Below, piece after piece: positions 3,001-55,753 of a stretch of DNA of 64,000 nucleotides (positions within the stretch are counted from its first letter, which is position 1; each line of letters starts with the position of its first letter). The notes beneath the pieces were generated by a model, which saw only the letters and a program-made list of their open reading frames with translations, was not told the DNA's origin and searched no databases. The position numbers and the translations under genes are program-made. Source of the stretch: a plasmid. The DNA is taken from sequence record NZ_CP040051.1; one strand, 5' to 3'.

Positions 3001-4910
3001 ATAATGCTAAACTTGCCGAATTATCAGCGAATGTCACAAGTAACCGTGAAAATGTTAATAAGCAGGTAACTGACGTCGATTTACTTAATAGTTATGGTGA
3101 TGATGTTGCTCTGGAATATCTAGTCCAGAATCGCTCTGTAGCTCAAATGCTTGTCATAAATTTACCTAAAGAAAATGATAAAAATGGCGCTGAAGGTATG
3201 GTTAAGAAAATCTTTAACCGTCTTAATTTTGTTTCCATTTACCAGCAAGAGAAGATTATCGATGATTTAACTTTTGCTTATAACGAAAAGATTCAGAAAC
3301 TTAATGAAATGGGAATTAATCCATTCGTAGTTCAAGTATGTGATTGGAAAGCTCAAACTATCTCTAAACAAGAGTTACAAAGTGGCTTGGGCATTATGTC
3401 GCATGTTTCTGATAGTGCATTTTTCGAACCGGCTTATTTCCAAAAAGTTAGCTATAAATCTGAAACAAAACCTTTTCATGGCGATGATGTTATCTCTTTA
3501 ATTGATAAGTCGAGACAGCTTACACGCCAGCAATTGTTCAAGCATTTATGTAATTTTGATGATAATTTTGCTTCTACTATGGAAGGAAAGGATCAGGAGC
3601 TATCTTTATCTAGTTTAATTAAGTTCTACAATGATGCTCAAAAACAGATTCTCGAAAGAGAATTAAGAGAGTCAATTAAATACTCAGCTTCGCAATCTTT
3701 TTTCAAATCTAAAATTGATAAATATGAATTTACCGAGATTGAAAACTTTATTCTGAATAAACCCAATCTTGATGAAATCAAAGAATTCTTGAAAATATCT
3801 GCTGAAAATAATAATTTTCTTCATATTTATCAAGGGTTAAATAAAGCTTTAACTGTGGTGGAATTTGTAGAAAAGCTTCAGATCTTAGAAGAACATCAGA
3901 GCTTTAATATAAATTTCGCAATAAGCATGAAGGAATCACTTTGGGATCAGCATTACCATCGTGAAACAAATGAAAATGCTTTGATACGAGTTATGTTCCC
4001 GAAATTAGGCGCTTCTAGTCTTTTAGCGAGTAATTATGAAATTCGTTACGTTTATCCAAGTTCAGATTTTGTACACAGTAGTAAGCTCAAATATTTAATA
4101 GAAGATGCTGCTTTAACTCCTACTCTATTACGGAATGTTGGTACTCATTTATTTATTGATGGAAATAAAAAGGAAGAAGAGTTTTCATTTATGAAAACTT
4201 TAAATGAAATAGAGTACTTAAAAACTAATAGTCCCCTTTTGCTTTCTTTCGATAAGTACGAACCAACCGCTATTGAGCGAACTGCAACCCTTTTAACTGG
4301 CAATATTATCAATGCCCTTAATGCTGCCTCAGTAGCTAAATTATCTTCTCAAATGATTAATTACACCGATGCTAGTGGAAATAGACAACGAGCAGTCATG
4401 CTATATGACGACTGTGAGTTGGAAGAAGTTTTAGACAAAGTTAAAGGTCTTTCAACAATACAAGAGGCGATTACTTATTTTGAACGTGTAAATGATGCTA
4501 TAGAGATGAATGAAAAACCTACTCTTCCGGATTTCTATATTGTTCGTTCAAATTCAAATGGGAACCCAACTATTGAACTCAATCTAAAACCTCTAAATGA
4601 TGAAACATATAACTTTGTTATTACTGGTAGCAGAAAACATTTAAAACAAGTTGCTGAGATGGATTCTATATTTGTACAAGCTGGCTCAGGAAATAGATCA
4701 GATAGTTTGAATTTAGTCCTTAAGGGAGATCTATCACAAGGAGCTCGTTCTAGCCAGACAGTTCAGGTCCCTATTGAAAAAGTAACTAAACTGCTAACCA
4801 ACCTTTCCACTGAATTTTCTACTGTGAAAATTAATAATCTTGATCCAGACGTCTTAGATCAACTTAAACCGAATACGTCGAATAAACTTACTCAGAATCT
4901 CATGTATTAG
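1..4910 (+). CDS. 5'-truncated giant DNA methyltransferase/SNF2-like helicase fusion protein (polyvalent, plasmid-type); the reading frame is open to position 1
   Basis: N6-adenine MTase motif IV 'NPPFGK' lies near the N-terminus. Helicase motif I 'DQTGIGKGRS', motif II 'LFLDESH' (DExH) and motif VI 'QMIGRVDRKGQ' are present. There is no stop codon between position 3 and the first Met at 69, so the gene starts upstream of the window. Confidence 0.6.
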   Translation, partial: FLDANIEQSNLRVIEGDYSKIKLKQLNNNELFDFTIANPPFGKIDKTSLTLNQAGSLERLNFSTQRLDHKILLETLSLRKDKGRSVFIIGSDSFYEAGVVKGGSKNLLNYLYDNYNVEAAVELDGSLYKKQGTRVNVRVLVIGDLLENNRTYEVPHELPIINNVQDLWRWSENVLQKRLQPELSYDGPSPSINQSESVISEANFDQNLDVVDDADFLTSALDSYLNDQIVPDESGNVGDLNKPDDDDFFGNEEEDTAVKPLSTGDEHQNNEILDLEIVEDESQAQEIIFESKSLQVAYVPVSQLSLPETMLPADQAILIKQAQDNQIKKILLLAEVNHELQKSIDLANNNPFDGFLLYKLQYSDLSSLSKAFSAEQVDAVTSAILSIENDRSYILGDQTGIGKGRSLAGMLRYSLINGFRPVFFTRNAQLFNDLWRDIVDTGTDKFISNPFIFNSDGFITHKDKVVYSPMKTSDIYNLDRIGNQFDIIFSTYSQFSGRSGKKENLFLSSIDKNTLLFLDESHVAASGESNISRFLSVVKERTGPTYHSSATDRKKANNLLFYSDIFPASFKGQLKSLIENKPSNELLEAISMALVKDGVFLRREHDFSKLEFRTYHASTQYQTASRELSDQLAQVLSKMAYLSGDVEEKVAKMNSEIKHNLEHMKEGSWQENRMQVNSMNFASRMHNISRQILLSVTTPLIIDQALESLKENRKPVIGLENTGESLLKMLLLKDSKAFELLDQINELKDSSDYDRALSDLNSGKMNQIEFDQEPIIVKLKKLEQDLAQFKQEDTILAKPPTIADLLENMVHKLDIIQVRDRYGQVRSETIDDEIYSDFKQDILDNIRKLPDIPLCPLDLIKAELESRGYKVGEISGREYQLKKIDSNQGSVFKVEVRQENNPTAKTKACNEFQSGILDAMIITRAGSTGLSLHAIPVNDGSPSQSDHLRQREFLTGQSPQAIDEFLQMIGRVDRKGQVSAPIISQFDTGLPIQRKFLMMHNAKLAELSANVTSNRENVNKQVTDVDLLNSYGDDVALEYLVQNRSVAQMLVINLPKENDKNGAEGMVKKIFNRLNFVSIYQQEKIIDDLTFAYNEKIQKLNEMGINPFVVQVCDWKAQTISKQELQSGLGIMSHVSDSAFFEPAYFQKVSYKSETKPFHGDDVISLIDKSRQLTRQQLFKHLCNFDDNFASTMEGKDQELSLSSLIKFYNDAQKQILERELRESIKYSASQSFFKSKIDKYEFTEIENFILNKPNLDEIKEFLKISAENNNFLHIYQGLNKALTVVEFVEKLQILEEHQSFNINFAISMKESLWDQHYHRETNENALIRVMFPKLGASSLLASNYEIRYVYPSSDFVHSSKLKYLIEDAALTPTLLRNVGTHLFIDGNKKEEEFSFMKTLNEIEYLKTNSPLLLSFDKYEPTAIERTATLLTGNIINALNAASVAKLSSQMINYTDASGNRQRAVMLYDDCELEEVLDKVKGLSTIQEAITYFERVNDAIEMNEKPTLPDFYIVRSNSNGNPTIELNLKPLNDETYNFVITGSRKHLKQVAEMDSIFVQAGSGNRSDSLNLVLKGDLSQGARSSQTVQVPIEKVTKLLTNLSTEFSTVKINNLDPDVLDQLKPNTSNKLTQNLMY

Positions 4911-45114: not shown

Positions 45115-46050
45115 AATTACACCTAGTGTTTGCTATTGTTAGTAGAAGTGCTCAAGGCAGCTTCGGCTTGTAGCAACAAGTATAAATTCTAAATTTTAAA
45201 AAATATATAGTATTAAAAAATAAAAACGCAGAATAAGCGGTCTTGAGTTCATATAAGTTGCGAACTAAAAACGTCATATCAAAAGTTATTGCTAGTTGAG
45301 CTAGTAAGGTTAATTTGTGAACAGTTTCTAATACGAGAAAAGACGAAAATTCTTTAAAAAATCAAAAAAACGATTAATTTGATCTTAAAAGTATGAAATG
45401 TAATGAATAAAAAGAATTTATTTCCAAATAATCTTGAAAACTTGTAGTTAAATTTAAATAAATCTACAAATAAGAAAAACAGATTAAATATTTGGACAAA
45501 AGTCGACAAGTCTAACGTCTAATTAAAATCAAAATAGAAATTTTTATAATGTAAAGCGTAGTATATAACATGGAGAAATTTATAGAATTATTTGATTTTA
45601 TTAATATTATTTTATTATTTTAATGAAAATAACTGATATAAGATATAATTTTTATTCCAATAATATAAGTATGAATAATATTCTATATATTTTATAGAAA
45701 TGAATATTGTTAAAAAATAAAATTTCTTATTTTTTCAATTAAGAAAATAAAGACCATTTAACTTTTTCTATTTATGTAAATAAGATTTAAAAAAATAATT
45801 AACATGTAGCATCACGTGAATGGTTGAAAGTTATATCAAGTTAAATGCTAATGAATGTACTTAGTATCTGCTTAAAAGTGGAATTTAATAAAGTTAAGGA
45901 TGGGTAACGAGCAAGGAGTGTTGCAAACGGTAAGTTTTTAAGCAAAACTGCAATCTGATGAGACATGATCTAGATCGAAGTGAAAGCAGTTGAGCAACAC
46001 TCCGTATCTGATAGGTGTAATAAATTTAAAATTATCGTGGTGTTTGAATT
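45115..46050. other. approximately 930-bp non-coding region with an extremely AT-rich core, about 45180..45900; candidate oriT/oriV or divergent control region
   Basis: No ORF longer than 60 aa. Long A/T runs. Contains a TCACGTGA palindrome and, at its right edge, a structured element (see next feature). Confidence 0.3.
45915..46003 (+). promoter_or_regulatory. 10-bp inverted repeat (GGAGTGTTGC / GCAACACTCC) enclosing a GATCTAGATC palindrome, immediately upstream of the recombinase gene
   Basis: Arms at 45915..45924 and 45994..46003. Perfect palindrome at 45967..45976. Confidence 0.4.
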
Positions 46051-47955
46051 ATGAAGGCTGGCTCGGAATTAGAATTCAATGCAAAAAAATATCCAAAAAG
46101 TATTAAAGGCTTGGAGACACGTGTATTTGATTATTCTGAGAAAACAATAATCAGATATACCAATGTTTGGAAAAAACTTTTAAAACAATATGGGTTAGAA
46201 GATCAAGTTTTGGTAAATCCAGAATATACGCTGGAAACAGTAGTAAATAATCTTATTTCTGAATATGGAAATAATGAATTGCGAAACTCCACTTTTAGAC
46301 ACTATCGATCTGCACTTATTCATCGTATGGGGGTGATCTTGAGTGAACAAAAGAGGGATGGTGAGAAGCTTGTAGCATTGCCTAAGCTGGCAAGACTTTT
46401 TGAAAGTTTGAAAGCAGTTGAGGCGACTGATGATAAAAAACAGCCGAACCGATCTAGCAGTTCGAAGCTCAAGTACTTTCCAAAAGATCTTTATGAATTT
46501 GTGTTAGGCAGCAGTTTTAATTTGAACAGGTCTAATTTGGGGTTGATGTTAAAGCTGTTTATAGAAGCAAATACTATGATTGGATTGAGGCCAGTGGAGT
46601 GGCAAAGCTTAAGGTTGGCATGTGATGTTGAAGAGAGATGCTTATCTCTTGTGGTCGATAATGCAAAAAATACTCAGGGTAGAGCGAACGGCGACATAAG
46701 GATTCTTAATATGATTGAGCCTGATCCAATCAAGCTTAAGAATCAATTAAGGGCAATACTTGGGTTTAAGAGATTGCTCGATTTAGAACTGGAGGCAAGA
46801 GCTAGAAAGTTCTTAACTGAAAGAAGTAGAGAGACTAATGAAACTTATAAAATTTACATCGCAAGTAAAGAGCCAGACAGTTTTGAATTTGAGTTCATTC
46901 ATTGGAAAGGTTCCCAAACCGTTAACTGTATAGAAGCCGTAAACTGTATAAAACCTGAGAATGGAACTGGAGAAACCGTAAACTGGATTTCTACTGAAAA
47001 CGAACTTGAGCAAAATATTGAAGATAGAACAAACGGCGCATTACCTTCCATAAACGGACCAGATACCGTAAACAGAATATCGTCCGGACATGGCCAGAAT
47101 ACGACTGACGGCAATAAAGCTGGCGGTAGTGAATTTAACTATGAGCGAGTGATTGAAGACGGCGCTCATTCTTCCGTAAACGGAATAAATACCGTAGACA
47201 GAATATGGGCCGTAGACGGAATAAATAAAGTTGATGGGAGTGATCACGGCGCATTACCTTCCGCGAACGGACCAGATACCGTAAACGGAATAAAGGCCAT
47301 AGACGGAAATAATACAGTTGATGGAATTAACGCCGTTGCCGGAATAAAGGGGGGTGGGACAAATCAAGCCATTTCTACTGCTTCTACTGCGCCAGCTCCA
47401 GAGTTGACCGACTTCGGATTTAATTCAGTTGCCGGAGAAATACAGCAAACTGGTAGAAATACCGATCACGGAAAAATGGCTGCCTTATTGGGTGCTTATA
47501 ACGCCGTGGTAATTGAAAGTTATGTTGATCGTTATGGCACGATTCAATATGCACTATGTCAAAGTGTGATGGATTCATTGCAACGTAAATTAAAAGATAT
47601 GAGCAATGAATTTTATGAAAAGAAAAAGTTTGGTTTACCTGAAGAGTTAGCTTCAAATAAAGCAAATGCTACGATTTACAGTACACGCCATCAAGCGGTA
47701 GCTAATCGAAAAAAATATAAGTGGAAAGAAGAAGAGGTCGCAGGTTGGTTTGGGCATGCAAGTGTTCAAACGGCGTCAAGACACTATGGTGTGGCTGGTA
47801 AAGGTTGGGGGGATAAACCTATGTTTAGAACTTCGAAATTTAGTCTTGAAAAAGTCAGAATGAGAGAGCAGCAAGTTAATCAAACCAAACAGCTCACGGA
47901 AGAAGATGTATTAAATTCGGTTTTATCTGATAAAGATTTAGATGATCTATTGTAA
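46051..47955 (+). CDS. tyrosine site-specific recombinase (integrase) with an internal repeat insertion
   Basis: C-terminal 'FGHASVQTASRHYG' (LGHxxxxxTxxY catalytic Tyr box). 'STRHQAVANR' (HxxR). 'LRPVEWQSLRL' (box I Arg). Confidence 0.65.
   Translation: MKAGSELEFNAKKYPKSIKGLETRVFDYSEKTIIRYTNVWKKLLKQYGLEDQVLVNPEYTLETVVNNLISEYGNNELRNSTFRHYRSALIHRMGVILSEQKRDGEKLVALPKLARLFESLKAVEATDDKKQPNRSSSSKLKYFPKDLYEFVLGSSFNLNRSNLGLMLKLFIEANTMIGLRPVEWQSLRLACDVEERCLSLVVDNAKNTQGRANGDIRILNMIEPDPIKLKNQLRAILGFKRLLDLELEARARKFLTERSRETNETYKIYIASKEPDSFEFEFIHWKGSQTVNCIEAVNCIKPENGTGETVNWISTENELEQNIEDRTNGALPSINGPDTVNRISSGHGQNTTDGNKAGGSEFNYERVIEDGAHSSVNGINTVDRIWAVDGINKVDGSDHGALPSANGPDTVNGIKAIDGNNTVDGINAVAGIKGGGTNQAISTASTAPAPELTDFGFNSVAGEIQQTGRNTDHGKMAALLGAYNAVVIESYVDRYGTIQYALCQSVMDSLQRKLKDMSNEFYEKKKFGLPEELASNKANATIYSTRHQAVANRKKYKWKEEEVAGWFGHASVQTASRHYGVAGKGWGDKPMFRTSKFSLEKVRMREQQVNQTKQLTEEDVLNSVLSDKDLDDLL
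46915..47352 (+). repeat. in-frame degenerate tandem DNA repeat inside the recombinase gene
   Basis: Repeated 'ccgtaaacgg(a/t)ata' units encode the T/D-V-N/D-G/R-I peptide repeats. Contains a near-identical 42-bp direct repeat at 47031..47072 and 47245..47286. Confidence 0.55.
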
Positions 47956-48038
47956 ATAAAATTGCATTCAGGTATTTTTAAAAATAGATATATCTTTTTT
48001 TAAAAATACGGTGGCTGGTATGCTGTTCGATACAAAAA

Positions 48039-48221
48039 TTGCTTTATTTTGTGGTTTGCTTGGTGGCATTTACAGTGCTATTGCCTACTTTGAATACCTA
48101 TTTTGAAATCCCTAATGTTGAACTATATGAGAGTATGAAAGCGAGACTTTTGCTGGCGGCTATCATCATTGCTGTGATTAGTGGGCCACTCTCATTTTTT
48201 TATTATTTATACGGCGGTTGA
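48039..48221 (+). CDS. small membrane protein (weak)
   Basis: 60-aa ORF with two hydrophobic segments. Confidence 0.25.
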   Translation: MLYFVVCLVAFTVLLPTLNTYFEIPNVELYESMKARLLLAAIIIAVISGPLSFFYYLYGG

Positions 48222-48227
48222 GCAGCA

Positions 48228-48560
48228 ATGAAGATACCTCTAATCATAATTGTGGTTTTATGCACTTTATATTTTTTAAATCTTTCATTGAAATCAAATA
48301 TGAAAGACATTCACAAAAACGAGATCAGCGATAAAGCGTATTTTCGTTTGAGTAGTGAATATAACTACATCAAGGAAAGTCCTGCTGGTGATGAAATGAG
48401 AGCTAAGATCATCAATGGCTTAGTGGATGGGATGATAGATGGTAACGAATATAAATCTATTATTGGAGAAGAGCCTGACTATGATCTTAGTACTGATGCT
48501 GAAAAAGCAACATACAAAGAGGCAAAACAAAAATTTATTGATGAATTTAAACCTTCATAA
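48228..48560 (+). CDS. small N-terminally TM-anchored protein, paralog A
   Basis: N-terminal TM helix. The C-terminal 'YKEAKQKFIDEFK' block is shared with the 48576 ORF. Confidence 0.4.
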   Translation: MKIPLIIIVVLCTLYFLNLSLKSNMKDIHKNEISDKAYFRLSSEYNYIKESPAGDEMRAKIINGLVDGMIDGNEYKSIIGEEPDYDLSTDAEKATYKEAKQKFIDEFKPS

Positions 48561-48575
48561 ATAGAGGCCATATTA

Positions 48576-48902
48576 ATGAAAAAGCTTTTTATAGGGCTTG
48601 TAATAATAGTAATTGCGCTGATCATCGTTACACAATACTTCAAAGCTAGAAGTTACAAAGTTGAAGTTGATGATAAGGGTTACTACATACTCAATGAAAT
48701 GTATGAGCATGTTAAAAATAGTAAGGCTGGAGATGAGCTTGAAATACGGCTTCACACGGCGTTGGATGATGGGATTATCACTCAGGCTGAATATACATAC
48801 CTCACGGACTCTGAATTGCCATCGATGGCAGTTCAAGCCAGTGATAAAGAATATAAAGAAGCCAAGCTAAAAATTTTGAAAGAGTTCAAAAAAGTTTCAT
48901 AA
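48576..48902 (+). CDS. small N-terminally TM-anchored protein, paralog B
   Basis: 'LDDGIITQAEY...YKEAKLKILKEFKK' is parallel to the 48228 ORF. Confidence 0.4.
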   Translation: MKKLFIGLVIIVIALIIVTQYFKARSYKVEVDDKGYYILNEMYEHVKNSKAGDELEIRLHTALDDGIITQAEYTYLTDSELPSMAVQASDKEYKEAKLKILKEFKKVS

Positions 48903-48950
48903 ATGAAAGTTTGTATCTATAGAACAGCTTAGATCCGTTCTCGGACTAAC

Positions 48951-48987
48951 ATACAGTAAACGGTATTAGTGACGGTAACGGATAAAG
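48951..48987 (+). repeat. intergenic repeat unit R1 (ATACAGTAAACGG...ACGGATAAAG family)
   Basis: 'atacagtaaacggtattagtgacggtaacggataaag'; follows a degenerate operator copy at 48893..48910. Confidence 0.5.
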
Positions 48988-49040
48988 TGACTAAGACAAA
49001 TTAATCTTAGACATAACATGATATTTATTGGAGACTTTAA

Positions 49041-49487
49041 ATGATAGAAAACTCACCTATCCCACTAATTGATAAATTAGTAAAAGAAAAAAATTTTGTT
49101 CTTCTAACTTGGGATGCTCGCTATTCCAGTGGGGCATGGGCATGTTGTTTGCCTTATCTTAATCAATGTGAAGTTGTTTATGAGGCTTCTGAAGATGGTG
49201 ATACTCTGATGATCCCTAAAATGGAATATTTACTTAATACTAATTGGCTTCCCATTATGGATGGCTCAAGCGCTATGGATGCCTTAGAAAAGTTAGAGAC
49301 TCGTTTAGCAACATTGCCAACTGATTTTCTTGCTGACAATGATTGGATTAATGCAACTGATGAAGCCATAAATTATTTAAGTAGAATTTCAAAAAAGTAT
49401 GAAGATGATGATGGTGGAATGGATGGAAAACTAAAACCTCTACCTATTGACTACAGAGAGATTAAGTTTCCTCAAGGCTTGTCCTAA
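49041..49487 (+). CDS. hypothetical protein
   Basis: ORF. Confidence 0.35.
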   Translation: MIENSPIPLIDKLVKEKNFVLLTWDARYSSGAWACCLPYLNQCEVVYEASEDGDTLMIPKMEYLLNTNWLPIMDGSSAMDALEKLETRLATLPTDFLADNDWINATDEAINYLSRISKKYEDDDGGMDGKLKPLPIDYREIKFPQGLS

Positions 49488-49488
49488 A

Positions 49489-49524
49489 TCAGTAAACGGT
49501 ATAAACGCCGTGGACGGATAAAGG
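49489..49524 (+). repeat. intergenic repeat unit R2
   Basis: 'atcagtaaacggtataaacgccgtggacggataaag'. Confidence 0.5.
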
Positions 49525-49561
49525 CTCTCCCCAATAGACTTAACTTATATAGGTGGCTTAA

Positions 49562-49864
49562 ATGAAAACAGATGATGTTATTGAACACATCGAAAATCAA
49601 AATGTGACAGCAGTAGAATTACTCGATGAGTTTGATCCGAACTTGCAATTCAAATTCGCAAAAGCAATGACGGCGTTAAAACAGATTATTGATGATGTTC
49701 GGATTCTTTATCCAGATGCCTCTTACTACATTCAAGATGATGCTTTTTATCTAATGCTAGGAGATAGCCATTCTGGTGATCATAAACAGAATGCAAATAC
49801 AAATTTAATTGCATTGACTGATAATCATAAATTGGCAGGGTGTATCTCTGGTGGAGGATTCTAA
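49562..49864 (+). CDS. hypothetical protein
   Basis: ORF. Confidence 0.3.
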   Translation: MKTDDVIEHIENQNVTAVELLDEFDPNLQFKFAKAMTALKQIIDDVRILYPDASYYIQDDAFYLMLGDSHSGDHKQNANTNLIALTDNHKLAGCISGGGF

Positions 49865-50191
49865 ATGAATATGTCAAACGAATATAAACCAATGCTTATC
49901 AAGCACAATAAGTCACAGCCACGTATTAAAAGTATCGAGGACAGGGTATTTCAAGTCTTTGGCATTTTTGCGCTAATTGCTTTTGGGTTAACAACGTGGG
50001 ACCTCTTTGCCGCTGGGGAGCTCTCAGTTCTAAGTTTTAATATGACTTCTGAGGAAATACATCAGTTATCTGAAGCGTTTATGGAAGCGCTCTTTTCCCG
50101 TGTATTTATGTTGGTCATTTTTATTTTCTTCGGTGGTTTTGCTCTACTTAATTTAATCAAACTTATTCAATTGTTTGATTCTGGCAAATAA
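49865..50191 (+). CDS. small membrane protein
   Basis: Two TM helices ('VFGIFALIAFGLTTW', 'VFMLVIFIFFGGFALLNLI'). Confidence 0.3.
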   Translation: MNMSNEYKPMLIKHNKSQPRIKSIEDRVFQVFGIFALIAFGLTTWDLFAAGELSVLSFNMTSEEIHQLSEAFMEALFSRVFMLVIFIFFGGFALLNLIKLIQLFDSGK

Positions 50192-50262
50192 ATTACGGCG
50201 GCGAATTCCGGCCACGTAAAAGTACAGTAATCGGCGTACCAATTTCGACTACGAAAATATTA
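50191..50262 (+). repeat. intergenic repeat unit R3 (two degenerate copies, ending CGAAAATATTAAG)
   Basis: 'attacggcggcgaattccggccacgtaaaagtacagtaatcggcgtaccaatttcgactacgaaaatattaag'. Confidence 0.45.
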
Positions 50263-50269
50263 AGAGGAT

Positions 50270-50641
50270 TTGAAAATGTTTAAAAGTGAACATGTGGTGA
50301 AAGAGCAAGATTTAGATAAGCTAATTAAAGAAAATCCCTATACTCAAAAAATAGTCCAGCATTTGAAAGATTTTGAAAACATTGAAATAGGGATTGTCTT
50401 ATTTATGGGTTTACCAGTTGCTGACCACGATTCCATAAATAAGCTACATCTTAAGTTGCATGGATATATTGAATGTTTATTGGAAAATGAGATGTGTACG
50501 CAATCACAGTGCAATCTATTGAAAGCGTCATTAGATGAAATTCATTTTAACAAGGTAAAGCCACGTTCATCTTCAACACATTCAAACGACGTGTATATTA
50601 CGGATGAAGATGTGCGCCGTTCAGGTGAACTTGGTTTTTAA
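50270..50641 (+). CDS. hypothetical protein
   Basis: ORF with RBS 'agaggatttgaaa'. Confidence 0.35.
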   Translation: MKMFKSEHVVKEQDLDKLIKENPYTQKIVQHLKDFENIEIGIVLFMGLPVADHDSINKLHLKLHGYIECLLENEMCTQSQCNLLKASLDEIHFNKVKPRSSSTHSNDVYITDEDVRRSGELGF

Positions 50642-50648
50642 AGACATC

Positions 50649-50805
50649 ATACAGCGTAACCAATTCCGGCTACGGAAAAATACAGTAAACGGGCTTGGGT
50701 CCGGACACGGCGAATATTAAGTTTTCAGTTATGACAGATGAAAGGACTAATTCCGGAAGCGGAGGAATACAGTAAACGGAAATAGGTCCGTACACGGAAA
50801 CACAG
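50649..50805 (+). repeat. intergenic repeat cluster R4 (three units)
   Basis: 'atacagcgtaaccaattccggctacggaaaaa', 'atacagtaaacgggcttgggtccggacacggcgaatattaag', 'atacagtaaacggaaataggtccgtacacggaaacacag'. Confidence 0.5.
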
Positions 50806-50834
50806 CTTCAAACGCCGTGATAATTTAAAAATAG

Positions 50835-50858
50835 ACCAGCTTTAAAGCTGGTTTTTTT
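50835..50858 (+). terminator. rho-independent terminator at the end of the small-gene array
   Basis: ACCAGC-TTTAAA-GCTGGT stem-loop followed by TTTTTT. Confidence 0.55.
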
Positions 50859-51010
50859 GTGCAAGCTATTTATAATTAGAAACTATAAATTTTTTAAAAC
50901 TAAAAAGTTTTCTGAAATATTTTTATTTTCTTAGGTAATTTTAAAAAAAAGATATTGCATATTTTTAAAAATACTAAGACAATAGCCACTATAAGCAACT
51001 GACACTAGAT

Positions 51011-51352
51011 GTGCAGTTTAATTCAAGCTCGTGCCTTAATAATGACGAGATGAGAACTATGAAAGAGTCACAACAACAAGACATTGAACTGTCTTCTTCT
51101 TCAGATGAATACAGTACGTGGGGGAATCCTCGCAATTCTCTGAATGTAGATGTTAGAACTAAAGAGTTCTATTCAAATCTGCTTACGCGCATTATCAACT
51201 TCAAGATTATTGTTCTTGTTGCTTTGACATTAGTTGTACTTGCACAAGTTGCCTATATCGCTGTTAAAAGAAATTTTGAACAGCTTGTTTTTGATGATGG
51301 TTCAAGTACTCCTTGTATTTATAACCCTCTAACTAAAACCTTTCGGCAATAA
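51011..51352 (+). CDS. small single-TM protein, IcmM/DotJ-like by position
   Basis: One TM ('IIVLVALTLVVLAQVAYIAV'). First gene of the plus-strand T4BSS block. The start is likely an internal Met. Confidence 0.3.
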   Translation: MQFNSSSCLNNDEMRTMKESQQQDIELSSSSDEYSTWGNPRNSLNVDVRTKEFYSNLLTRIINFKIIVLVALTLVVLAQVAYIAVKRNFEQLVFDDGSSTPCIYNPLTKTFRQ

Positions 51353-51369
51353 TAAGCAAGGAATAGGTA

Positions 51370-52086
51370 ATGTCTGAACAAAAGCAGAATCAGAACCCGA
51401 AAACTAAACCTCGTTTTCCAACTACACCAGAACAGGTTAATAGTGGGTTGGTCGAAATGGCCAAAAAGAATGATGAACTTGAAGACAAGATTAAAAGTCA
51501 ACGTCGTCAATTATTAGGCTGCATTATCGGTATTGGTGTGTTGGGTACAGCAGTTGCAGTACTTGGTGGCATTATTGGATTGATGCCAAAAGTCGAATAC
51601 TTTCAGACCGTCAATAATGAAGTAATTTGTAAAATCAATCCGAATGACAATCCTGCATTTACTGACGTAAATGTTGCTGAATTTGCTTCGGAAGGTTTGC
51701 TAAATGCCTATTCACTTGATTATCAAAATGCTGACGCTGATATCAATAACACTTTACGCCGTTACTTCACAGATCGTGGGCGTGAAAGCTTCATTACTAC
51801 ACTACGTCAATCAGGTTTGATTGACCAAATCCGTAACAATTTCTTAGTCCTTAGAACTTCTAAGCTGCAAACACCTGAAGTCGCTAAAAATAATGGCATT
51901 GATAGTCGTGGCAATCGATTCTGGATTGTTATGCAACCAGTTCGCATGGACTACTTCAACGGTAAATCTCAACCGGCTGATACTCGACAATATATGGCTG
52001 AAATTCGTGTTGAAGTTACGCCACGTGATGTCTATAACCCGAAAGGTTTAGGTATCGCCAGTATCGTTTTACGTGCAAAAAATTAA
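51370..52086 (+). CDS. icmL: bitopic inner-membrane protein, IcmL/DotI-like
   Basis: Single TM ('LLGCIIGIGVLGTAVAVLGGIIGL') followed by an approximately 170-aa periplasmic domain. Position is upstream of the icmK-like gene. Confidence 0.45.
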   Translation: MSEQKQNQNPKTKPRFPTTPEQVNSGLVEMAKKNDELEDKIKSQRRQLLGCIIGIGVLGTAVAVLGGIIGLMPKVEYFQTVNNEVICKINPNDNPAFTDVNVAEFASEGLLNAYSLDYQNADADINNTLRRYFTDRGRESFITTLRQSGLIDQIRNNFLVLRTSKLQTPEVAKNNGIDSRGNRFWIVMQPVRMDYFNGKSQPADTRQYMAEIRVEVTPRDVYNPKGLGIASIVLRAKN

Positions 52087-52103
52087 TTTAGGGAAGTCTC
52101 AAG

Positions 52104-53234
52104 ATGCAGCTAAAGTTTAAAAATCTTGCACTGAGTATGGCGCTAGTCGTTGCTGGTAGTTCTTATGCTGAACCAAGCCAACAACAATCAGGCCAGCAAC
52201 AGCAAGCTACGGCGCAGCAAACTGTGCCTTCTTCTCAACCACAGGGTAATAACCAATCTCAAGGGAATAACCAGCAACAAGGTCAACAGCAAGCCAATAA
52301 TCAACAGGCTCAAGCTGAAGCGCCTTCGTATATTGGAACACCTCCACCAAATACGATTAATTTAGGTAATGTTCAAACTTTTGGTAATTCGTTCCCACCA
52401 CCAGTACGTGTAGCGAAAACTAAAGATGAGATTGTTGCTGAAATTTTAAGTATGGAACTTACCCCGCAACAGGTTAAAAACATCAAGGATCTGCTCTTAC
52501 GTCAAGAGCGGGATGCTTCTACACCATATACGACAACGGCGCGACCAATTGTACGCTCTGTTCCAATTGATTTGAGCCCAGCAGCTCAACCGCCAGTCTT
52601 ACGGCTTTCTATGGGCATGTTAACCAGTATTGTTTTTAGCGATCTGAGTGGTAATCCGTGGGAAATTGAAAAAGTTACGTTCAACAAAGAACTGTTTGCA
52701 GACGACAGACCAGAACAAGGGCAGGGTCAAGGTGAAAAATCTGATATTTCATCTAAAAACACGAACATATTTTCAATTGAACCTCTTACCGCTACCGCTT
52801 ACGGAAACGTGACAGTACGTTTAAAAGGTTTATCAACACCAGTAATTTTCATTTTAGCCACTGGTCAAAATGAAGTGGATATGCGTATTGATGCGCGACT
52901 AGCTGGGCGTAGTCCAACATCTGTCAACTCTTCGTTACGCGCAAATATGAATGCCACTGGCGTTATGTCGAGTATTGATAGCCAGACACTACTATTTCTA
53001 GATGGTACGCCTCCAGTAGAAGCAGAACGCATTAGAACTTCAGATACAAGTGTTGAAGCTTGGAATTTTAACGGTCAATACATTGTTCGTAGTAACGATA
53101 CAGTGCTTTACCCAAGTTATAAATCAACAGCACGTTCAACAGGCGGCACAAGTATTTATGTCTATCCGGATCCTATTAATCAGGTAACGATTAGTAGAAA
53201 CGGACAACCGACTACAGTGTATTTTAATAATTAA
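52104..53234 (+). CDS. icmK: outer-membrane core component, IcmK/DotH-like (VirB9-like)
   Basis: Signal peptide, Q-rich linker, beta-rich C-terminal domain. 376 aa, against roughly 360 aa for DotH. Syntenic position. Confidence 0.5.
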   Translation: MQLKFKNLALSMALVVAGSSYAEPSQQQSGQQQQATAQQTVPSSQPQGNNQSQGNNQQQGQQQANNQQAQAEAPSYIGTPPPNTINLGNVQTFGNSFPPPVRVAKTKDEIVAEILSMELTPQQVKNIKDLLLRQERDASTPYTTTARPIVRSVPIDLSPAAQPPVLRLSMGMLTSIVFSDLSGNPWEIEKVTFNKELFADDRPEQGQGQGEKSDISSKNTNIFSIEPLTATAYGNVTVRLKGLSTPVIFILATGQNEVDMRIDARLAGRSPTSVNSSLRANMNATGVMSSIDSQTLLFLDGTPPVEAERIRTSDTSVEAWNFNGQYIVRSNDTVLYPSYKSTARSTGGTSIYVYPDPINQVTISRNGQPTTVYFNN

Positions 53235-53242
53235 GGTGTGCT

Positions 53243-54874
53243 ATGAGTGCTGAAAATAATACAAATAAACCAGATGACATCCAGTCTTCGCAAGAGCAAT
53301 TCACTGGTCAAAATGAAGCGACTCACTCGACTCATAATTCCGATCCTGAACGCAGGGATCCATTGACGCCTGAATATGAGACGTTTGAAGAAAATCAGAC
53401 AGCAACTTGGATACCAAGAAATGATGCAGATAATCGCATCAATATGAAATTTGGTGATAAGTTCAAGCTCTACTGGCGTGAAAACGGTGTGTTCCGTTTT
53501 ATCATCATAACTGTTGGTGCAGTAATTCTTCTTATCCTATTTTTCCTCATGAAGTTCATCTTCAGACAGGATGCGCCGGAACAAATTAATCCGGCAAATA
53601 TTAAGATGGATGCTCCGCAAAGCAATACTAAGCAAGCGGAATATGTATCACAAGAGCAATATACAGCTATACGTAAACAAGAAGAAATTCTTGCAAGACA
53701 GGCGGCGGCTAAAGGCGAAAGCTATACACCACGTAATCTTGTTATTGCTCCAACAGATGCTCAAGGTCAAGTGGTATTACCTTCAACATCTAATGCTCAA
53801 TACGGCGCTATGAACCCGCAACAAGCTGGTTTAATGAATAGTACTGGCCAATTAACTTATGCAAATCCAGCAGTGGCAGGACAACAAGGTCAGATGCAAC
53901 AGCAGGGAATGCAGCAAGGCCAACCGCAACCTCAATACATACCAGTTCAAACACAAGATTACGTAAGTGATGTTGCTGCGAATTATGAGCAAAATAACAA
54001 TCAATTTGCGAACTGGTTTGATGAAGAAAGTCAACGCCAAATCACTGCAAATAAAGAGCAAGAACAAACAATTAACAGTTTTGTTCTTAAACAGATTGGT
54101 CAGATCACGGGTGCTGAGTTTGACGCTAACGGAAATATGATTCCGAAGAGCAAAGACAAAAAAACTAAAGCCGGTTCATACGCACAAAAAACCTATTACA
54201 CGGCGCCAGCAAGCGCAGACAATTCCGGAAACGGAAGTAATACAGGTAACAGTGCAAACAATGCTCAGGATGCTTCGCCGTTTTCCGCTAACGGAAATAA
54301 TCCAGTAAACGGTAAAAAGTCCGGAACCGGAAAAGTGTTGATTCCAGCCGGAACTCGTTCAATTGCTCGTTTATTGGGTGAAGTGAATACAGATGACGGC
54401 AACCAAGTCTTTGCACAAGTTACCAATGGCCCATTAAAAGGCCGCAAAGTGTTTGGAACAGTTTCTAAGTCAAATGACAATATTCAATTCAAAATTGATC
54501 GTGTCTTGAGTGATGGTAAGAACAAAGAATTTTCTATCGACGCCGTGGGTCAAACGTTGCAAGGCTCATATGGAATGGCGACATATATCAAACGCCATAC
54601 TTTACAGCGTTATGGTGCATTAATCGCAAGTGGTATTGCACAAGGTTACGGTCAGGCATATAGCCAAGCTTATGGCCAACAAACTTATACAAGTGGTGCA
54701 ACAGTGATTGAGACTAAGGATCCATCTGGTGAGCGTATTGCCGGAAACATCATTGGTCAAGTTGGCCAAAATGCAAGTCAGGAAATTCAGCAAATCGGGC
54801 GTAAACAAGTGACATATATCACTCCAGTCGGCACCGTTTTCTACATTTTCTTTAACCAAGATGTGACTGAATAA
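53243..54874 (+). CDS. icmE: IcmE/DotG-like (TraO/VirB10-like) core complex protein
   Basis: Cytoplasmic N-terminus, TM ('FRFIIITVGAVILLILFFLMKFIF'), Pro/Gln-rich spacer, C-terminal VirB10-like beta domain ('VLIPAGTRSIARLLGEVNTDDGNQVFAQV'). Confidence 0.5.
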   Translation: MSAENNTNKPDDIQSSQEQFTGQNEATHSTHNSDPERRDPLTPEYETFEENQTATWIPRNDADNRINMKFGDKFKLYWRENGVFRFIIITVGAVILLILFFLMKFIFRQDAPEQINPANIKMDAPQSNTKQAEYVSQEQYTAIRKQEEILARQAAAKGESYTPRNLVIAPTDAQGQVVLPSTSNAQYGAMNPQQAGLMNSTGQLTYANPAVAGQQGQMQQQGMQQGQPQPQYIPVQTQDYVSDVAANYEQNNNQFANWFDEESQRQITANKEQEQTINSFVLKQIGQITGAEFDANGNMIPKSKDKKTKAGSYAQKTYYTAPASADNSGNGSNTGNSANNAQDASPFSANGNNPVNGKKSGTGKVLIPAGTRSIARLLGEVNTDDGNQVFAQVTNGPLKGRKVFGTVSKSNDNIQFKIDRVLSDGKNKEFSIDAVGQTLQGSYGMATYIKRHTLQRYGALIASGIAQGYGQAYSQAYGQQTYTSGATVIETKDPSGERIAGNIIGQVGQNASQEIQQIGRKQVTYITPVGTVFYIFFNQDVTE

Positions 54875-54883
54875 CAATCGAAT

Positions 54884-55753
54884 TTGGAGAAATTAAAAAT
54901 GTCAAACGAACCACAACAACCTAATTATGATGACGATTTTGACTATCAGACACAGGCACAACAACCAGTTGATTCGACTGATAGACGTAATAAGTTCATT
55001 TTAATTGGCGCAGTTATCTTCGCTATTTGTGTTCTTACGTTCATGTTTATTTCAACAAAAATGAAAAAAGCACCACCGAAAGATCAAACTATTGAAGCTC
55101 CAGCTCCAGATCAAACGGCATATCAACCACCGCCACAACCAGTGCAAATGCAGCCACAACAACCGGTTGGATATTCGCAAAATTCAATGGTGGCCGTGCC
55201 AGAAACGATGCCAAAGTCTACTGATCCAGTGAACGGTACAGTGATGGTTAAAGATATGACTGGTAAAGACGTTGATGCTTATTCCGTGGACGGACAAAAC
55301 GCCATTATTCAATTCAACAATGCTAATGGTTTACAGCCGATCCCATTGAATATGCCAGCTCCAGTAGCGCCAAATATCAATAATCAGGCGAATAATTTTA
55401 ATGAGCAACGTGTGATTACGTTAGAGCAAGAAAATTCACAGCTCAAGGCTCAAAACAATTCACTACGTACATTGGCCCAAGATCAGCAACTTAAAATTGG
55501 ACAGTATCAAGCATTGATTAAAAATGCACGCGCAAACAACGGCGCAAATATTGTGCAATTACGTGAAACTAAAAAAGGTGTTGCTTTGAATAAAGCATTA
55601 CCACGTGGACAAGAAGTAGTAGCGACTGTAGGCAATCGTGTTTGGTTATCTGACGGTAAGCAATATAACTCATATGGAGTAGGCCAACGTCTACCAACGG
55701 GTTATCGCGTTCTTGATGTAAATGAAATGGCTGGCGAAGCTTCATTTAAGTAA
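54884..55753 (+). CDS. icmG: IcmG/DotF-like bitopic protein
   Basis: TM ('FILIGAVIFAICVLTFMFI'), Pro/Gln-rich region, coiled-coil 'QENSQLKAQNNSLRTLAQDQQLKIGQYQAL'. Position follows icmE. Confidence 0.45.
   Translation: MEKLKMSNEPQQPNYDDDFDYQTQAQQPVDSTDRRNKFILIGAVIFAICVLTFMFISTKMKKAPPKDQTIEAPAPDQTAYQPPPQPVQMQPQQPVGYSQNSMVAVPETMPKSTDPVNGTVMVKDMTGKDVDAYSVDGQNAIIQFNNANGLQPIPLNMPAPVAPNINNQANNFNEQRVITLEQENSQLKAQNNSLRTLAQDQQLKIGQYQALIKNARANNGANIVQLRETKKGVALNKALPRGQEVVATVGNRVWLSDGKQYNSYGVGQRLPTGYRVLDVNEMAGEASFK

Follow-up and report, generated by a model that had tools for sequence, protein, structure and literature searches.

The repeats in a 64,000-nt stretch (the window) of the record NZ_CP040051.1, a large resistance plasmid from Acinetobacter, are best explained by a recombination-prone modular repeat that delimits an array of accessory genes and has expanded in frame in a disordered protein loop, with the adjacent tyrosine recombinase as its most likely agent, a reading held tentatively at a probability of about 45%. 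Repeat sharing between a tract inside the recombinase gene and the intergenic DNA downstream exceeds chance and the tract is a plasmid-family-specific modular DNA repeat translated in frame, not a protein domain. The features concerned are listed in Table 1.

Table 1. Features of the recombinase gene, the small-ORF array and the dotG copy, in window coordinates.
Feature	Position	Strand	Remarks
Divergent tyrosine recombinase gene	46051..47955	+	634 aa; folded at residues 12-295 and 486-634
Catalytic Arg I R180 (46588-46590, in GLRPVEW) and Lys K206 (46666-46668, in NAKNTQGRANG)	46588..46668	+	both invariant in the 50-sequence family alignment
In-frame repeat tract	46915..47508 (~590 bp)	+	encodes [T/A/P]-[V/I]-[N/D]-G-I-[N/K]-type hexapeptides in a disordered loop
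42-nt head-plus-unit module, two copies (47033-47074 and 47246-47287)	47033..47287	+	38/42 identical, 213 nt (71 codons) apart
C-terminal catalytic box Y543-x-x-R546-H547, H569, nucleophile Y579 (47785-47787)	47677..47787	+	50-sequence alignment
AT-rich 38-nt palindrome GTATTTTTAAAAATAGATA/TATCTTTTTTTAAAAATAC	47972..48009	.	start of the small-ORF array; inverted repeats I9, I2
Seven small co-oriented ORFs (60-148 aa), variable module region	48039..50641	+	ORF list
Intergenic element D, two units, CATACAGTAAACGGTATT and AGTGACGGTAACGGATAA	48950..48987	+	flanks the 536-bp o148 indel (versus pAB3) on the left
o148 module	49041..49487	+	absent from pAB3, where one hybrid element stands
Intergenic element E, two units, the second overlapping tail AACGCCGTG (49504-49512)	49486..49523	+	o148 junction at the 5' edge of the tail
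Degenerate element A, head-like ACGGCGGCG and one scored unit at 50204	50195..50262	+	the o123 swap versus pAB3 has its left breakpoint here
o123 module	50270..50641	+	pAB3 has an unrelated 63-aa ORF instead
Elements B (50662-50714, three units) and C (50749-50819, three units and tail CGCCGTG at 50813)	50662..50819	+	families D4, D5
Intrinsic-terminator-like hairpin closing the recombinase and small-ORF unit	50833..50854	+	predicted
Element in frame in a DotG/IcmE-like gene (53243..54874)	54199..54334	+	head CACGGCG at 54199; units at 54221, 54281, 54299 and 54317

By fold and catalytic residues the gene at the left of the array encodes a tyrosine recombinase. The predicted structure has the two domains of such enzymes, a core-binding helical domain and a catalytic domain, and the catalytic set R...K...H-x-x-R...H/W...Y is present except for the first His, which an invariant Tyr (Y543) replaces throughout the family to give Y-x-x-R-H instead of the usual H-x-x-R-H. 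The preliminary description of this DNA, which spoke of an integrase with canonical catalytic boxes, was therefore right about the enzyme but not entirely about the boxes. In the 50-sequence family alignment the columns R180, K206, Y543, R546, H547 and Y579 are invariant and H569 is found in at least 90% of sequences, with residues 567-580 reading FGHASVQTASRHYG. The protein gave no match to Pfam PF00589 (Phage_integrase) and was missed by Pfam, NCBIfam and PDB sequence searches alike, a distant homologue (P0025) scoring 22.9 bits in PF00589 with a cut-off of 27.1. The missing match marks a divergent clade, with some 1200 relatives invisible to Pfam, and does not contradict the fold. A family profile had no match among PDB sequences, such that fold comparison was needed. 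Structure prediction (AF2) used the 50-sequence alignment, 10 close sequences having given a mean pLDDT of only 42.8, and residues 296-485 fall below a pLDDT of 50. Purifying selection is strong on the folded domains, whereas the repeat tract is disordered and its constraint relaxed.

In the catalytic domain the tract separates the sheet bearing the Lys from the YxxR helix. Its units start at 46915, 46933, 46972, 47062, 47170, 47188 and 47206 and further along at 47257, 47275, 47293, 47311, 47329, 47422 and 47458, with heads (ACGGCGC) at 47033, 47159 and 47246 and tails (CGCCGT) at 47331 and 47502, and Tandem Repeats Finder reports a period of 18 x 3 at 47174-47227. An insertion of approximately 440 bp (46915..47352) had been described, which is real and in frame but, given the last two units and a final tail motif spanning 47502-47508, extends to ~47508. 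Likewise, the 42-bp direct repeat placed at 47031..47072 and 47245..47286 exists, though as an imperfect repeat in a slightly different register (Table 1). Recombination between these copies removes 71 codons, and this is matched by a natural variant (P0002) that lacks exactly 71 aa between them. In close relatives the gene encodes 627, 680 or 724 aa, and with P0002 these lengths bear out the expansion first proposed, in the sense that the tract changes length by gain and loss of repeat modules. Such natural variants show the tract growing and shrinking, with head-plus-unit modules recombining unequally or slipping on one another. Down to 49% identity, the tract is found at the same position throughout the Acinetobacter MPF_I-plasmid clade, while it is absent from more distant homologues (28-33% identity, 300-480 aa); the comparison of orthologues that had been proposed as a check on lineage-specificity thus assigns it to a whole clade and not to this plasmid alone.

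The elements follow a common order in which a head, (C)ACGGCGCA, leads into n units of 18 nt and a tail, AACGCCGTG, complementary to the head, with 7-nt ends of CACGGCG (head) and CGCCGTG (tail). Each unit is a quasi-palindrome, CCG-N3-A-CGG, in an AT-rich frame, so the palindromic element first suggested is not a simple palindrome but a composite of head, units and tail. The inverted ends and the closing stem of complete elements amount to the terminal inverted repeats of a MITE. In L014, where a tail and a head are separated by N8, the junction sequence is TACGCCGTTGGTATTCACGGCGCA. With at most one mismatch GTAAACGGAA has 14 matches against 4.09 expected, a number equalled in 0 of 100 shuffles, and CCG-N4-CGG has 18 against 1.40, all between 47174 and 55293. 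The head end CACGGCG has 9 matches against 1.15 expected, with strands alternating as head/tail pairs, and CAGTAAACGG has 5 on the + strand and 0 on the - strand. The repeat family is limited to two clusters on the 169-kb plasmid with all copies on one strand. A blastn search of PLSDB with a complete L004 element gave no match, blastn being unable to find repeats so short and degenerate.

The kinship of coding and intergenic copies was scored with a matrix whose training set was confined to intergenic units from other plasmid lineages. Its matches per kb amount to 17.7 in the recombinase tract, 16.6 in the DotG linker, 8.1 in the intergenic spacers of the window and 0.16 elsewhere, the density in the tract being more than 100 times that of the rest of the window. 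Together with the shared head-unit-tail grammar this upholds the earlier observation that the same core recurs between the downstream genes. Could the tract instead be a low-complexity repeat of the protein, its likeness to the DNA repeat arising by chance or codon coincidence? Asn-Gly-rich linkers are common and AAC-GGA codons would yield part of the motif. However, the tract has 11 matrix matches whereas the same peptide recoded with background codons averages 3.3 and never exceeds 7 (500 trials), the non-coding copies have the same heads, tails and unit order, and intergenic spacings of 17, 19 and 21 nt mean that those copies are not coding. This explanation is already contradicted by the recoding test and the non-coding copies, and hardly any credence is left to it. 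Codon use in the tract is also skewed to the repeat sequence (GGA 52% versus 16%; ATA 69% versus 13%) and is bent in that direction in all three lineages, in keeping with the original view of a nucleotide-level repeat translated in frame. Relative to pAB3 the tract has 6 synonymous and 6 non-synonymous changes.

The head-unit-tail layout is identical in three lineages whose recombinases are 49-55% identical, and every fetched locus encoding a recombinase of this clade also has repeat units. Repeat units were absent from 24 loci of distant recombinase homologues (26-30% identity; Acinetobacter mega-plasmids, Moraxella, Comamonas and others), and in 3 of these loci inspected for direct repeats of any kind no comparable array was seen. 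The lack of repeats at distant homologues stands against the units being sites of the recombinase.

The unit is six codons long and stop-free in one frame, which makes in-frame copies possible in the catalytic domain of the recombinase and in the DotG linker, and such copies would be tolerated in disordered loops rich in Asn, Gly, Asp and Ile. The dotG copy encodes ...DNSGNGSNTGNS...ANGNNPVNGKKSGTG..., and equivalent units are present in dotG of L002. The second repeat cluster lies at ~149.2-149.9 kb of the plasmid record (L007 45170-45870), where an AT-rich, promoter-like motif is preceded by three units at 21-bp spacing and followed by six more. It was considered as a second rearrangement hotspot and rejected, there being no structural variation among relatives. 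Copies within the recombinase gene, dotG and the second cluster would be dangerous substrates for a site-specific recombinase, a point against the recombinase-site model.

Between the recombinase gene and the dotI operon the dispersed copies follow small ORFs, all on the coding strand. None of the seven small ORFs matched a Pfam family above the curated cut-off. L002 and L004 have non-homologous ORFs at this place, between a recombinase gene and dotI that are homologous. Comparison with pAB3 (flanks 92-99% identical) showed o148 as a presence/absence difference bounded by two element copies, and a swap of o123 with both breakpoints in heads. Within Acinetobacter the o148 module was found on just 8 plasmids; plasmids from other genera carry distant homologues of it. 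Set against L002, L014 and L015 show a swap of the first ORF at a head, the absence of o93 exactly from a tail plus 7 nt to the next head, and another deletion that starts inside o93 and ends at the same head. In a small sample of ~6 independent rearrangements, the distance to the nearest head or tail hexamer is at most 8 nt for 6 of 9 junction ends (scored coordinates), as against 6-9% of positions by chance, and for 7 of 9 if the right end of the o123 swap is taken in pAB3 coordinates; at several junctions the other end is in ordinary sequence. Accessory modules in other lineages include CRISPR mini-arrays. A metagenome scan yielded only three more loci, each belonging to the L002 lineage; apart from a single shared deletion and insertions, they showed no further module swaps.

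Gain, loss and swap of modules at heads and tails favour a role in recombination. As the pattern of junctions shows, the dispersed copies act as preferred break-and-join points for gain, loss and exchange of accessory modules. The adjacent tyrosine recombinase would be the most likely agent, with the inverted 7-nt head and tail acting as core-type sites and the units as accessory sites, and from this we infer an integron-like arrangement in which the recombinase acts on heads, tails and units. The recombinase nevertheless appears to lie outside the IntI clade and is missed by PF00589, and while intI is divergent from its array the recombinase gene here is co-oriented with the array and ends with it at one terminator. 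The attI and Pc of integrons are defined and here none is. The elements are analogous to attC in position, not in sequence: attC has the form R''-L''...L'-R' with RYYYAAC/GTTRRRY, whereas the elements end in CACGGCG/CGCCGTG and hold 18-nt tandem units. Copies are found here also inside coding genes and at a second locus. As to cassette mobility, junctions at heads or tails accompany ~6 events in which a module was gained, lost or swapped, with no cassette seen in different arrays and no cassette sharing between lineages found at the DNA level. Homologues of o93 on unrelated plasmids have no elements beside them, and no attI-like site, canonical core site (two arms around a 6-8-bp spacer) or excision circle came to light.

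Other known systems resemble the repeat in part. Rickettsia palindromic elements (RPE) occur between genes and in frame inside genes. Likewise, RPEs and Coxiella MITEs are short structured repeats that are both intergenic and in frame and add a tolerated peptide segment, as does the repeat in the recombinase tract, the DotG linker and the intergenic DNA. They are single insertions of ~100-150 bp dispersed genome-wide, whereas the present repeat is modular, tandem, on one strand and at module junctions, in only two clusters and not dispersed across the replicon. The BOX element of Streptococcus pneumoniae has the structure boxA-(boxB)n-boxC. BOX is similar in that terminal parts able to pair enclose a variable number of tandem internal units, and in being intergenic and co-transcribed, but the sequences are unrelated and BOX modules are ~45-60 nt each, chromosomal and dispersed; to our knowledge BOX has not been reported in frame in proteins or beside a recombinase. 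In the shufflon of the IncI1 plasmid R64 the Rci recombinase acts on sfx repeats. There too an MPF_I (Dot/Icm-like) conjugative plasmid codes for a tyrosine recombinase and short repeats overlap coding sequence, but sfx are 19-bp inverted repeats inside pilV that cause inversions, while here there are direct repeats, no pilV, and modules gained, lost or swapped. Iteron and centromere arrays (sopC, parC) share tandem short units, internal dyad symmetry and regular spacing, but the present repeats are scattered after and inside genes with heads and tails, and the ParB-like protein has separate parS-like sites. Literature on such in-frame elements includes PMC5896051 and PMC10969869.

The two readings first put forward, a selfish RPE-like element or the recombinase's own target sites, are not separated by the data, with junctions at heads and tails favouring recombination and no target-site duplications or empty sites pointing to transposition. 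In its passive or selfish form the repeat would be a functionless structured element (cf. BOX, REP, RPE) spread by slippage, gene conversion and hairpin-stimulated illegitimate recombination with no dedicated enzyme; the recombinase next door would be coincidental and the in-frame copies those that selection let through. Tandem copy-number polymorphism and relaxed protein constraint in the tract, copies in two unrelated genes and a distant second cluster, several one-ended junctions with microhomology, the repeat-free loci of distant homologues and the folding of complete elements with a head-tail closing stem (z-scores -4.7, -4.1 and -2.5) are all in keeping with this, and we regard it as possible if rather unlikely. 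It fits less well with two clusters on one plasmid type, always on one strand, unlike dispersed REP, RPE and BOX. The unit consensus and the GGA/ATA codon bias are also kept across lineages with ~50% protein divergence, which argues for nucleotide-level selection or continuing homogenisation. At the edges of elements no target-site duplications were noticed; among the relatives compared, none had a recombinase or dotG site free of the element, and no parent IS was seen. A bolder form of the recombination reading, which we consider doubtful, is a non-IntI gene-capture platform in which the new recombinase clade would insert and exchange small modules just upstream of the Dot/Icm-like transfer operon by way of head/tail-bounded sites that contain units, its own sites having expanded in frame in its gene and in dotG; among such modules would be CRISPR mini-arrays and perhaps anti-defence genes, and recombinase dosage or tract length could be coupled to recombination activity.

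Regulatory explanations are weaker still. Operator- or centromere-like arrays, bound by a plasmid or host dimer that coats the transfer region and controls its expression, with the genic copies as tolerated sites, are improbable. The information in the unit is roughly dyad-symmetric (C4, C5 and G6 mirror C11, G12 and G13), the units are regular with 17-21-bp spacing, including the second cluster around its promoter-like motif, and the dot genes and transfer operons of pAB3 are known to be regulated through GacS/A (GacA; PMC10746170). Most copies nevertheless lie 3' of ORFs and not at promoters, an 18-bp spacing would put successive dimers on different helix faces, and heads, tails and the junctions at them are left unexplained. 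The plasmid's KorB/ParB-like protein is unlikely as the unit binder, having its own parS-like palindromes, CTTTCACATGTGAAAG, which flank its gene and are absent from the window. More improbable again are RNA-level elements that stabilise or process a polycistronic mRNA or form A-N-GGA arrays for CsrA/RsmA. Every copy lies within a transcription unit, on its coding strand, ACGGA recurs in most units with a period of 18 nt, G:T (22) exceeds A:C (6) at the innermost stem pair of intergenic units, and the same GacS/A regulon holds the pAB3 dot genes. An RNA stem-loop is unsupported in that six stem pairs over 132 units show no compensatory changes, with G:T (70) only slightly above A:C (49) and with A:G and A:A mismatches common, and window copies fold no better than shuffles (z-scores -0.6 to -2.1). 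An Rfam scan of 45-56 kb at E<=1 returned only three sub-threshold chance matches. A CsrA sponge was rejected as the main explanation, given that about a third of the units have an incomplete GGA (complete in only ~63%), conservation is dyad-symmetric (CCG/CGG) and not GGA-centred, the plasmid has no csrA homologue and the pAB3 study does not invoke CsrA (PMC10746170); A14 is found in 63% of units and GGA lies in a stem half rather than a hairpin loop. The stem positions without compensatory changes, by which neither a hairpin nor a dimer site is proven, are also a point against the recombinase-site model.

In Acinetobacter baumannii and its relatives the main large conjugative resistance plasmids are those of the pAB3/pA297-3 family. 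The papers searched on these plasmids cover the transfer system and its regulation and do not describe the recombinase, the repeat or the variable array. The repeat's presence both between swappable small genes and in frame in two proteins suggests a gene-shuffling hotspot not described before. If the repeats are recombination sites, small genes beside the transfer machinery could be picked up and swapped by a new route, and two protein-coding genes would, unusually for bacteria, harbour functional DNA sites in frame. Even a passive repeat would be a clear and testable case of in-frame repeat colonisation outside obligate intracellular bacteria, with tract length and module content as a typing marker for these plasmids and a recombinase clade worth defining in itself. 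The AT-rich palindrome at the start of the array has a related copy at 50935-50974, ahead of the dotI operon, and its motif TTTTTAAAAATAC has 9 matches against 1.24 expected.

The repeat that interrupts the tyrosine recombinase gene is built from a basic unit of 18 nt (consensus AATTCCGTTAACGGAATA), with its information concentrated in C4-C5-G6 and (A10)-C11-G12-G13, so that within AT-rich surroundings it reads as the quasi-palindrome CCG-N3-A-CGG. A head, (C)ACGGCGCA, stands before the units, and a tail, AACGCCGTG, the head's inverted complement, stands after them. All element copies of the window lie on the + strand, the strand calls depending on heads, tails and the AA centre as the unit matrix is itself palindromic. 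The sequence CACGGCG occurs nine times against 1.15 expected, the first eight alternating + - + - as head/tail pairs. Repeat finders recovered an 18-nt period of three copies (47174-47227), a family of 88-nt repeats at 47033, 47159 and 47246, and one of 18-nt repeats, the eighth of which falls between genes (49490). The preliminary description placed the tract, the in-frame repeat region of the gene, at 46915-47352; it exists but its end reaches approximately 47508, and the 42-bp direct repeat reported within it is real but in another register, 47033-47074 against 47246-47287 (38/42 identical, offset 213 nt). The core said to be common to tract and intergenic repeats was recovered far in excess of chance, GTAAACGGAA with at most one mismatch giving 14 matches against 4.09 expected and CCG-N4-CGG 18 against 1.40, every match lying within 47174-55293.

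Positions of the repeat elements and of the associated hairpin
Feature	Position	Strand	Remark
Copies in recombinase gene	heads 47033, 47159, 47246; ~14 units; tails 47331, 47502	+	
Intergenic copies (n = 5)	48950, 49486, 50195, 50662, 50749	+	each 3′ of a small ORF
In-frame copy in DotG/IcmE-like gene	head 54199; units 54221-54334	+	translated ...DNSGNGSNTGNS...ANGNNPVNGKKSGTG...
Terminator-like hairpin	50833-50854		closes the recombinase and small-ORF unit
Second cluster	L007 (another region of the pAB04-1 record) 45170-45870; pAB04-1 record ~149.2-149.9 kb		925-bp spacer before lipoprotein-led operon

The 169-kb plasmid has just one other repeat cluster, upstream of another + strand operon, comprising a head-tail hairpin with no units and an AT-rich promoter-like stretch that has three units, spaced by 21 nt, on its upstream side and six on its downstream side, and this cluster is structurally conserved among relatives of the pAB3 type. 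A separate AT-rich motif, TTTTTAAAAATAC, matches nine times where 1.24 would be expected. Directly 3′ of the recombinase gene it makes up a near-perfect palindrome of 38 nt (47972-48009), and it recurs ahead of the dotI operon (50935-50974), so that the variable array of small ORFs is bracketed; similar sequence lies ahead of the plasmid's second operon (L007 ~45700-45740) and in the plasmid lineages L002 and L004, and the motif is probably a common promoter or operator.

To compare coding and intergenic copies, a weight matrix trained on 39 intergenic units from other lineages only (L002, L004 and L003) was scanned over the window, giving densities of 17.7 hits per kb in the tract, 16.6 in the DotG linker, 8.1 in the window spacers and 0.16 elsewhere. 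The tract holds 11 matrix hits, while 500 recodings of the same peptide with window codon usage averaged 3.3, with a maximum of 7. The tract's codons are skewed towards the repeat (GGA 52% against 16%, ATA 69% against 13%, ACC 41% against 12%), GGA also leads among Gly codons in the other two lineages' tracts, and spacings of 17, 19 and 21 nt between intergenic units mark those copies as non-coding. The likeness of the tract to the intergenic repeats is thus at the DNA level, one modular repeat being common to coding and non-coding sites. The matrix, recoding, codon and spacing results therefore leave the preliminary description standing where it could have failed: the intergenic repeats are related to the tract, and among orthologues no structured domain free of DNA repetitiveness was found at the tract position.

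The recombinase ORF (46051-47955) encodes 634 aa and carries FGHASVQTASRHYG, as claimed, with no match in Pfam, NCBIfam or PDB sequence searches. A word-indexed search found only 12 relatives, from Acinetobacter or unnamed assemblies (49-99% identity, 425-686 aa), and all of those spanning the region have an indel-rich [T/P][V/I][N/D]G[I/S][N/K] tract at the same position. Profile searching of 1.84 billion representatives gave 1202 relatives, 548 below 1e-10, and most of those listed measure 300-460 aa and align in two stretches, leaving the tract out; sub-threshold Pfam integrase-domain matches were seen in two of ten distant members. Across an alignment of 50 sequences, R180, K206, Y543, R546, H547 and Y579 are invariant and H569 nearly so (at least 90%), which is the tyrosine-recombinase set with Tyr replacing the first His; the catalytic boxes described as canonical depart from the usual form at that position. 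AlphaFold, run with this alignment, gave pLDDT > 90 for residues 12-295 and 486-634 and < 50 for 296-485. With the catalytic domain divided by the tract, structure searches gave modest E-values. Against the close relative pAB3 the folded parts differ by 27 synonymous and two non-synonymous changes and the tract by six of each. Together the substitution counts, conserved residues and pLDDT indicate that the gene encodes a functional enzyme under strong constraint, in which a disordered loop is tolerated and constrained only weakly.

Within that loop the repeat expands and contracts in frame. P0002, a natural recombinase variant (86% identity overall), lacks exactly the 71 codons between the two copies of the 42-nt module, and in the L002 lineage, where flanks are 93-99% identical, recombinase genes encode 627, 680 and 724 aa and differ by whole head-plus-unit blocks. 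Such changes reflect slippage or unequal recombination from module to module, and since modules are multiples of 18 nt the reading frame is kept.

Megablast matched the recombinase ORF (95-100% identity) to 62 Acinetobacter plasmids, every one of which has a Dot/Icm-like (MPF_I) transfer system; they include pAB04-1 (identical), pD46-4 and pAB3 of ATCC 17978 (97.8%). The gene, named 'hypothetical protein' or 'integrase' in RefSeq, is flanked by a dotD-dotC-dotB cluster on the - strand and a dotI-dotH-dotG cluster on the + strand. Two papers on this plasmid family (PMC10117892, PMC10746170) make no mention of the recombinase, the repeat or the variable array. The approximately 935-bp spacer between dotD and the recombinase gene (45115-46050) is very AT-rich with short tandem repeats (45587-45624, period 19) and is a candidate regulatory or origin region. 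A 241-kb plasmid of Acinetobacter corruptisaponis (NZ_CP125670.1) has the whole recombinase and dot region twice, with identical unit, head and tail maps across 18 kb. A parS-like 16-bp palindrome, CTTTCACATGTGAAAG, has no copy within the window and two in another region of the pAB04-1 record (L006 31757 and 35172; ~85.8 and 89.2 kb). A parA/KorB-like pair lies between them, one copy being directly upstream of parA and the other ~1.4 kb downstream of both genes.

The window, L002 and L004 have conserved recombinase (49-55% identity) and o113-dotI genes (42-76%). The small ORFs lying between these genes have no homology from lineage to lineage, one weak L002-L004 case excepted; head-units-tail elements lie 3′ of these small ORFs in every lineage. 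The repeats are clustered and strand-biased, with a grammar conserved across lineages, and the accessory modules turn over with joints at heads and tails. Between the window and pAB3 (flanks 92-99% identical) a 536-bp segment carrying the small ORF o148 is bordered by an element copy on each side, and pAB3 has a single hybrid copy at that place, the crossover mapping to the 5′ edge of the tail CGCCGTG; o123 gives way to a 63-aa ORF of unrelated sequence, both breakpoints falling within heads. In L014, a locus compared with L002, the first ORF is exchanged with the right breakpoint 2 nt from a head, and o93 is missing exactly from the tail plus 7 nt to the next head, leaving TACGCCGT-TGGTATTC-ACGGCGCA; in the loci L015 and L047 a deletion starts inside o93 and ends at the head bordering that loss. 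A head or tail hexamer is found within 8 nt of six of the nine junction ends, or of seven when pAB3 coordinates are used for the right end of the o123 swap, a distance at which 6-9% of positions qualify, the junctions coming from sequence comparison of few independent rearrangements and being uncertain by the length of shared bases.

These observations suggest, at a probability of roughly 0.45, that the elements are recombination sites and the adjacent recombinase their user. The main rival is a passive repeat of the BOX/REP/RPE kind, with hairpins that would provoke illegitimate recombination. It accounts for the stable second cluster, for the copies within the recombinase gene and dotG, and for the lack of repeats beside distant recombinase homologues; it fits less well with persistence of the consensus and with the restriction to a single plasmid family and strand, and is the less likely of the two. 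Dyad symmetry and the promoter-flanking second cluster agree with a DNA-binding array, which is improbable; the ParB/KorB-like protein has parS-like sites of its own, and most copies are 3′ of ORFs. Action at the RNA level is more doubtful still, with no covariation, no Rfam support and no convincing folds among the window copies, and a CsrA role breaks down on conservation of the motif.

Among known systems the integron is closest in its working to this arrangement, sharing a recombinase and ORF-and-palindrome modules, but the elements do not have attC sequence character, the divergent layout with attI/Pc is absent and nothing places the recombinase in the IntI clade. RPEs and Coxiella MITEs resemble the elements in their in-frame aspect, pneumococcal BOX elements in head-units-tail modularity and the R64 shufflon in its setting, a tyrosine recombinase in an MPF_I plasmid.

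A tail-N8-head arrangement (ACGCCGT-ATTCATAC-ACGGCG) lies within the dotH coding sequence (L002 15268-15290, with equivalents in L014, L015, L018 and L047); its layout is that of the L014 junction where o93 is missing, and it may be chance or a solitary site. The variable regions of L004 (~4300-4520) and L014 (~4270-4500, directly 3′ of that junction) hold CRISPR mini-arrays of type I-F-like 28-nt repeats, TTTCTAAGCTACCTATACGGTAGTGAAC and TTTCTAAGCCACCTGTGCGGTGGTGAAC, each made up of four repeats around three 32-nt spacers; no cas genes lie near them. A 79% identical copy of o93 occurs on unrelated 66-71-kb plasmids (L013 5001-5279; pAS62-4, MOBF), directly upstream of a TetR gene with no repeat elements, the ORF alone being common and not its flanks. 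Two adjacent window ORFs (48228-48560, 110 aa; 48576-48902, 108 aa) resemble paralogues, each with an N-terminal hydrophobic helix and a DG-x-I-x-x-x-EY segment (SHOCT-like, weak Pfam match), and a CACGGCG head lies inside the second at 48755. The o148 product (49041-49487) is a widespread plasmid-borne protein of unassigned function, with 43-46% identical homologues on Shewanella and Pseudomonas conjugative plasmids, 38% in sphingomonads and ~30% on Bacillus and Paenibacillus plasmids.
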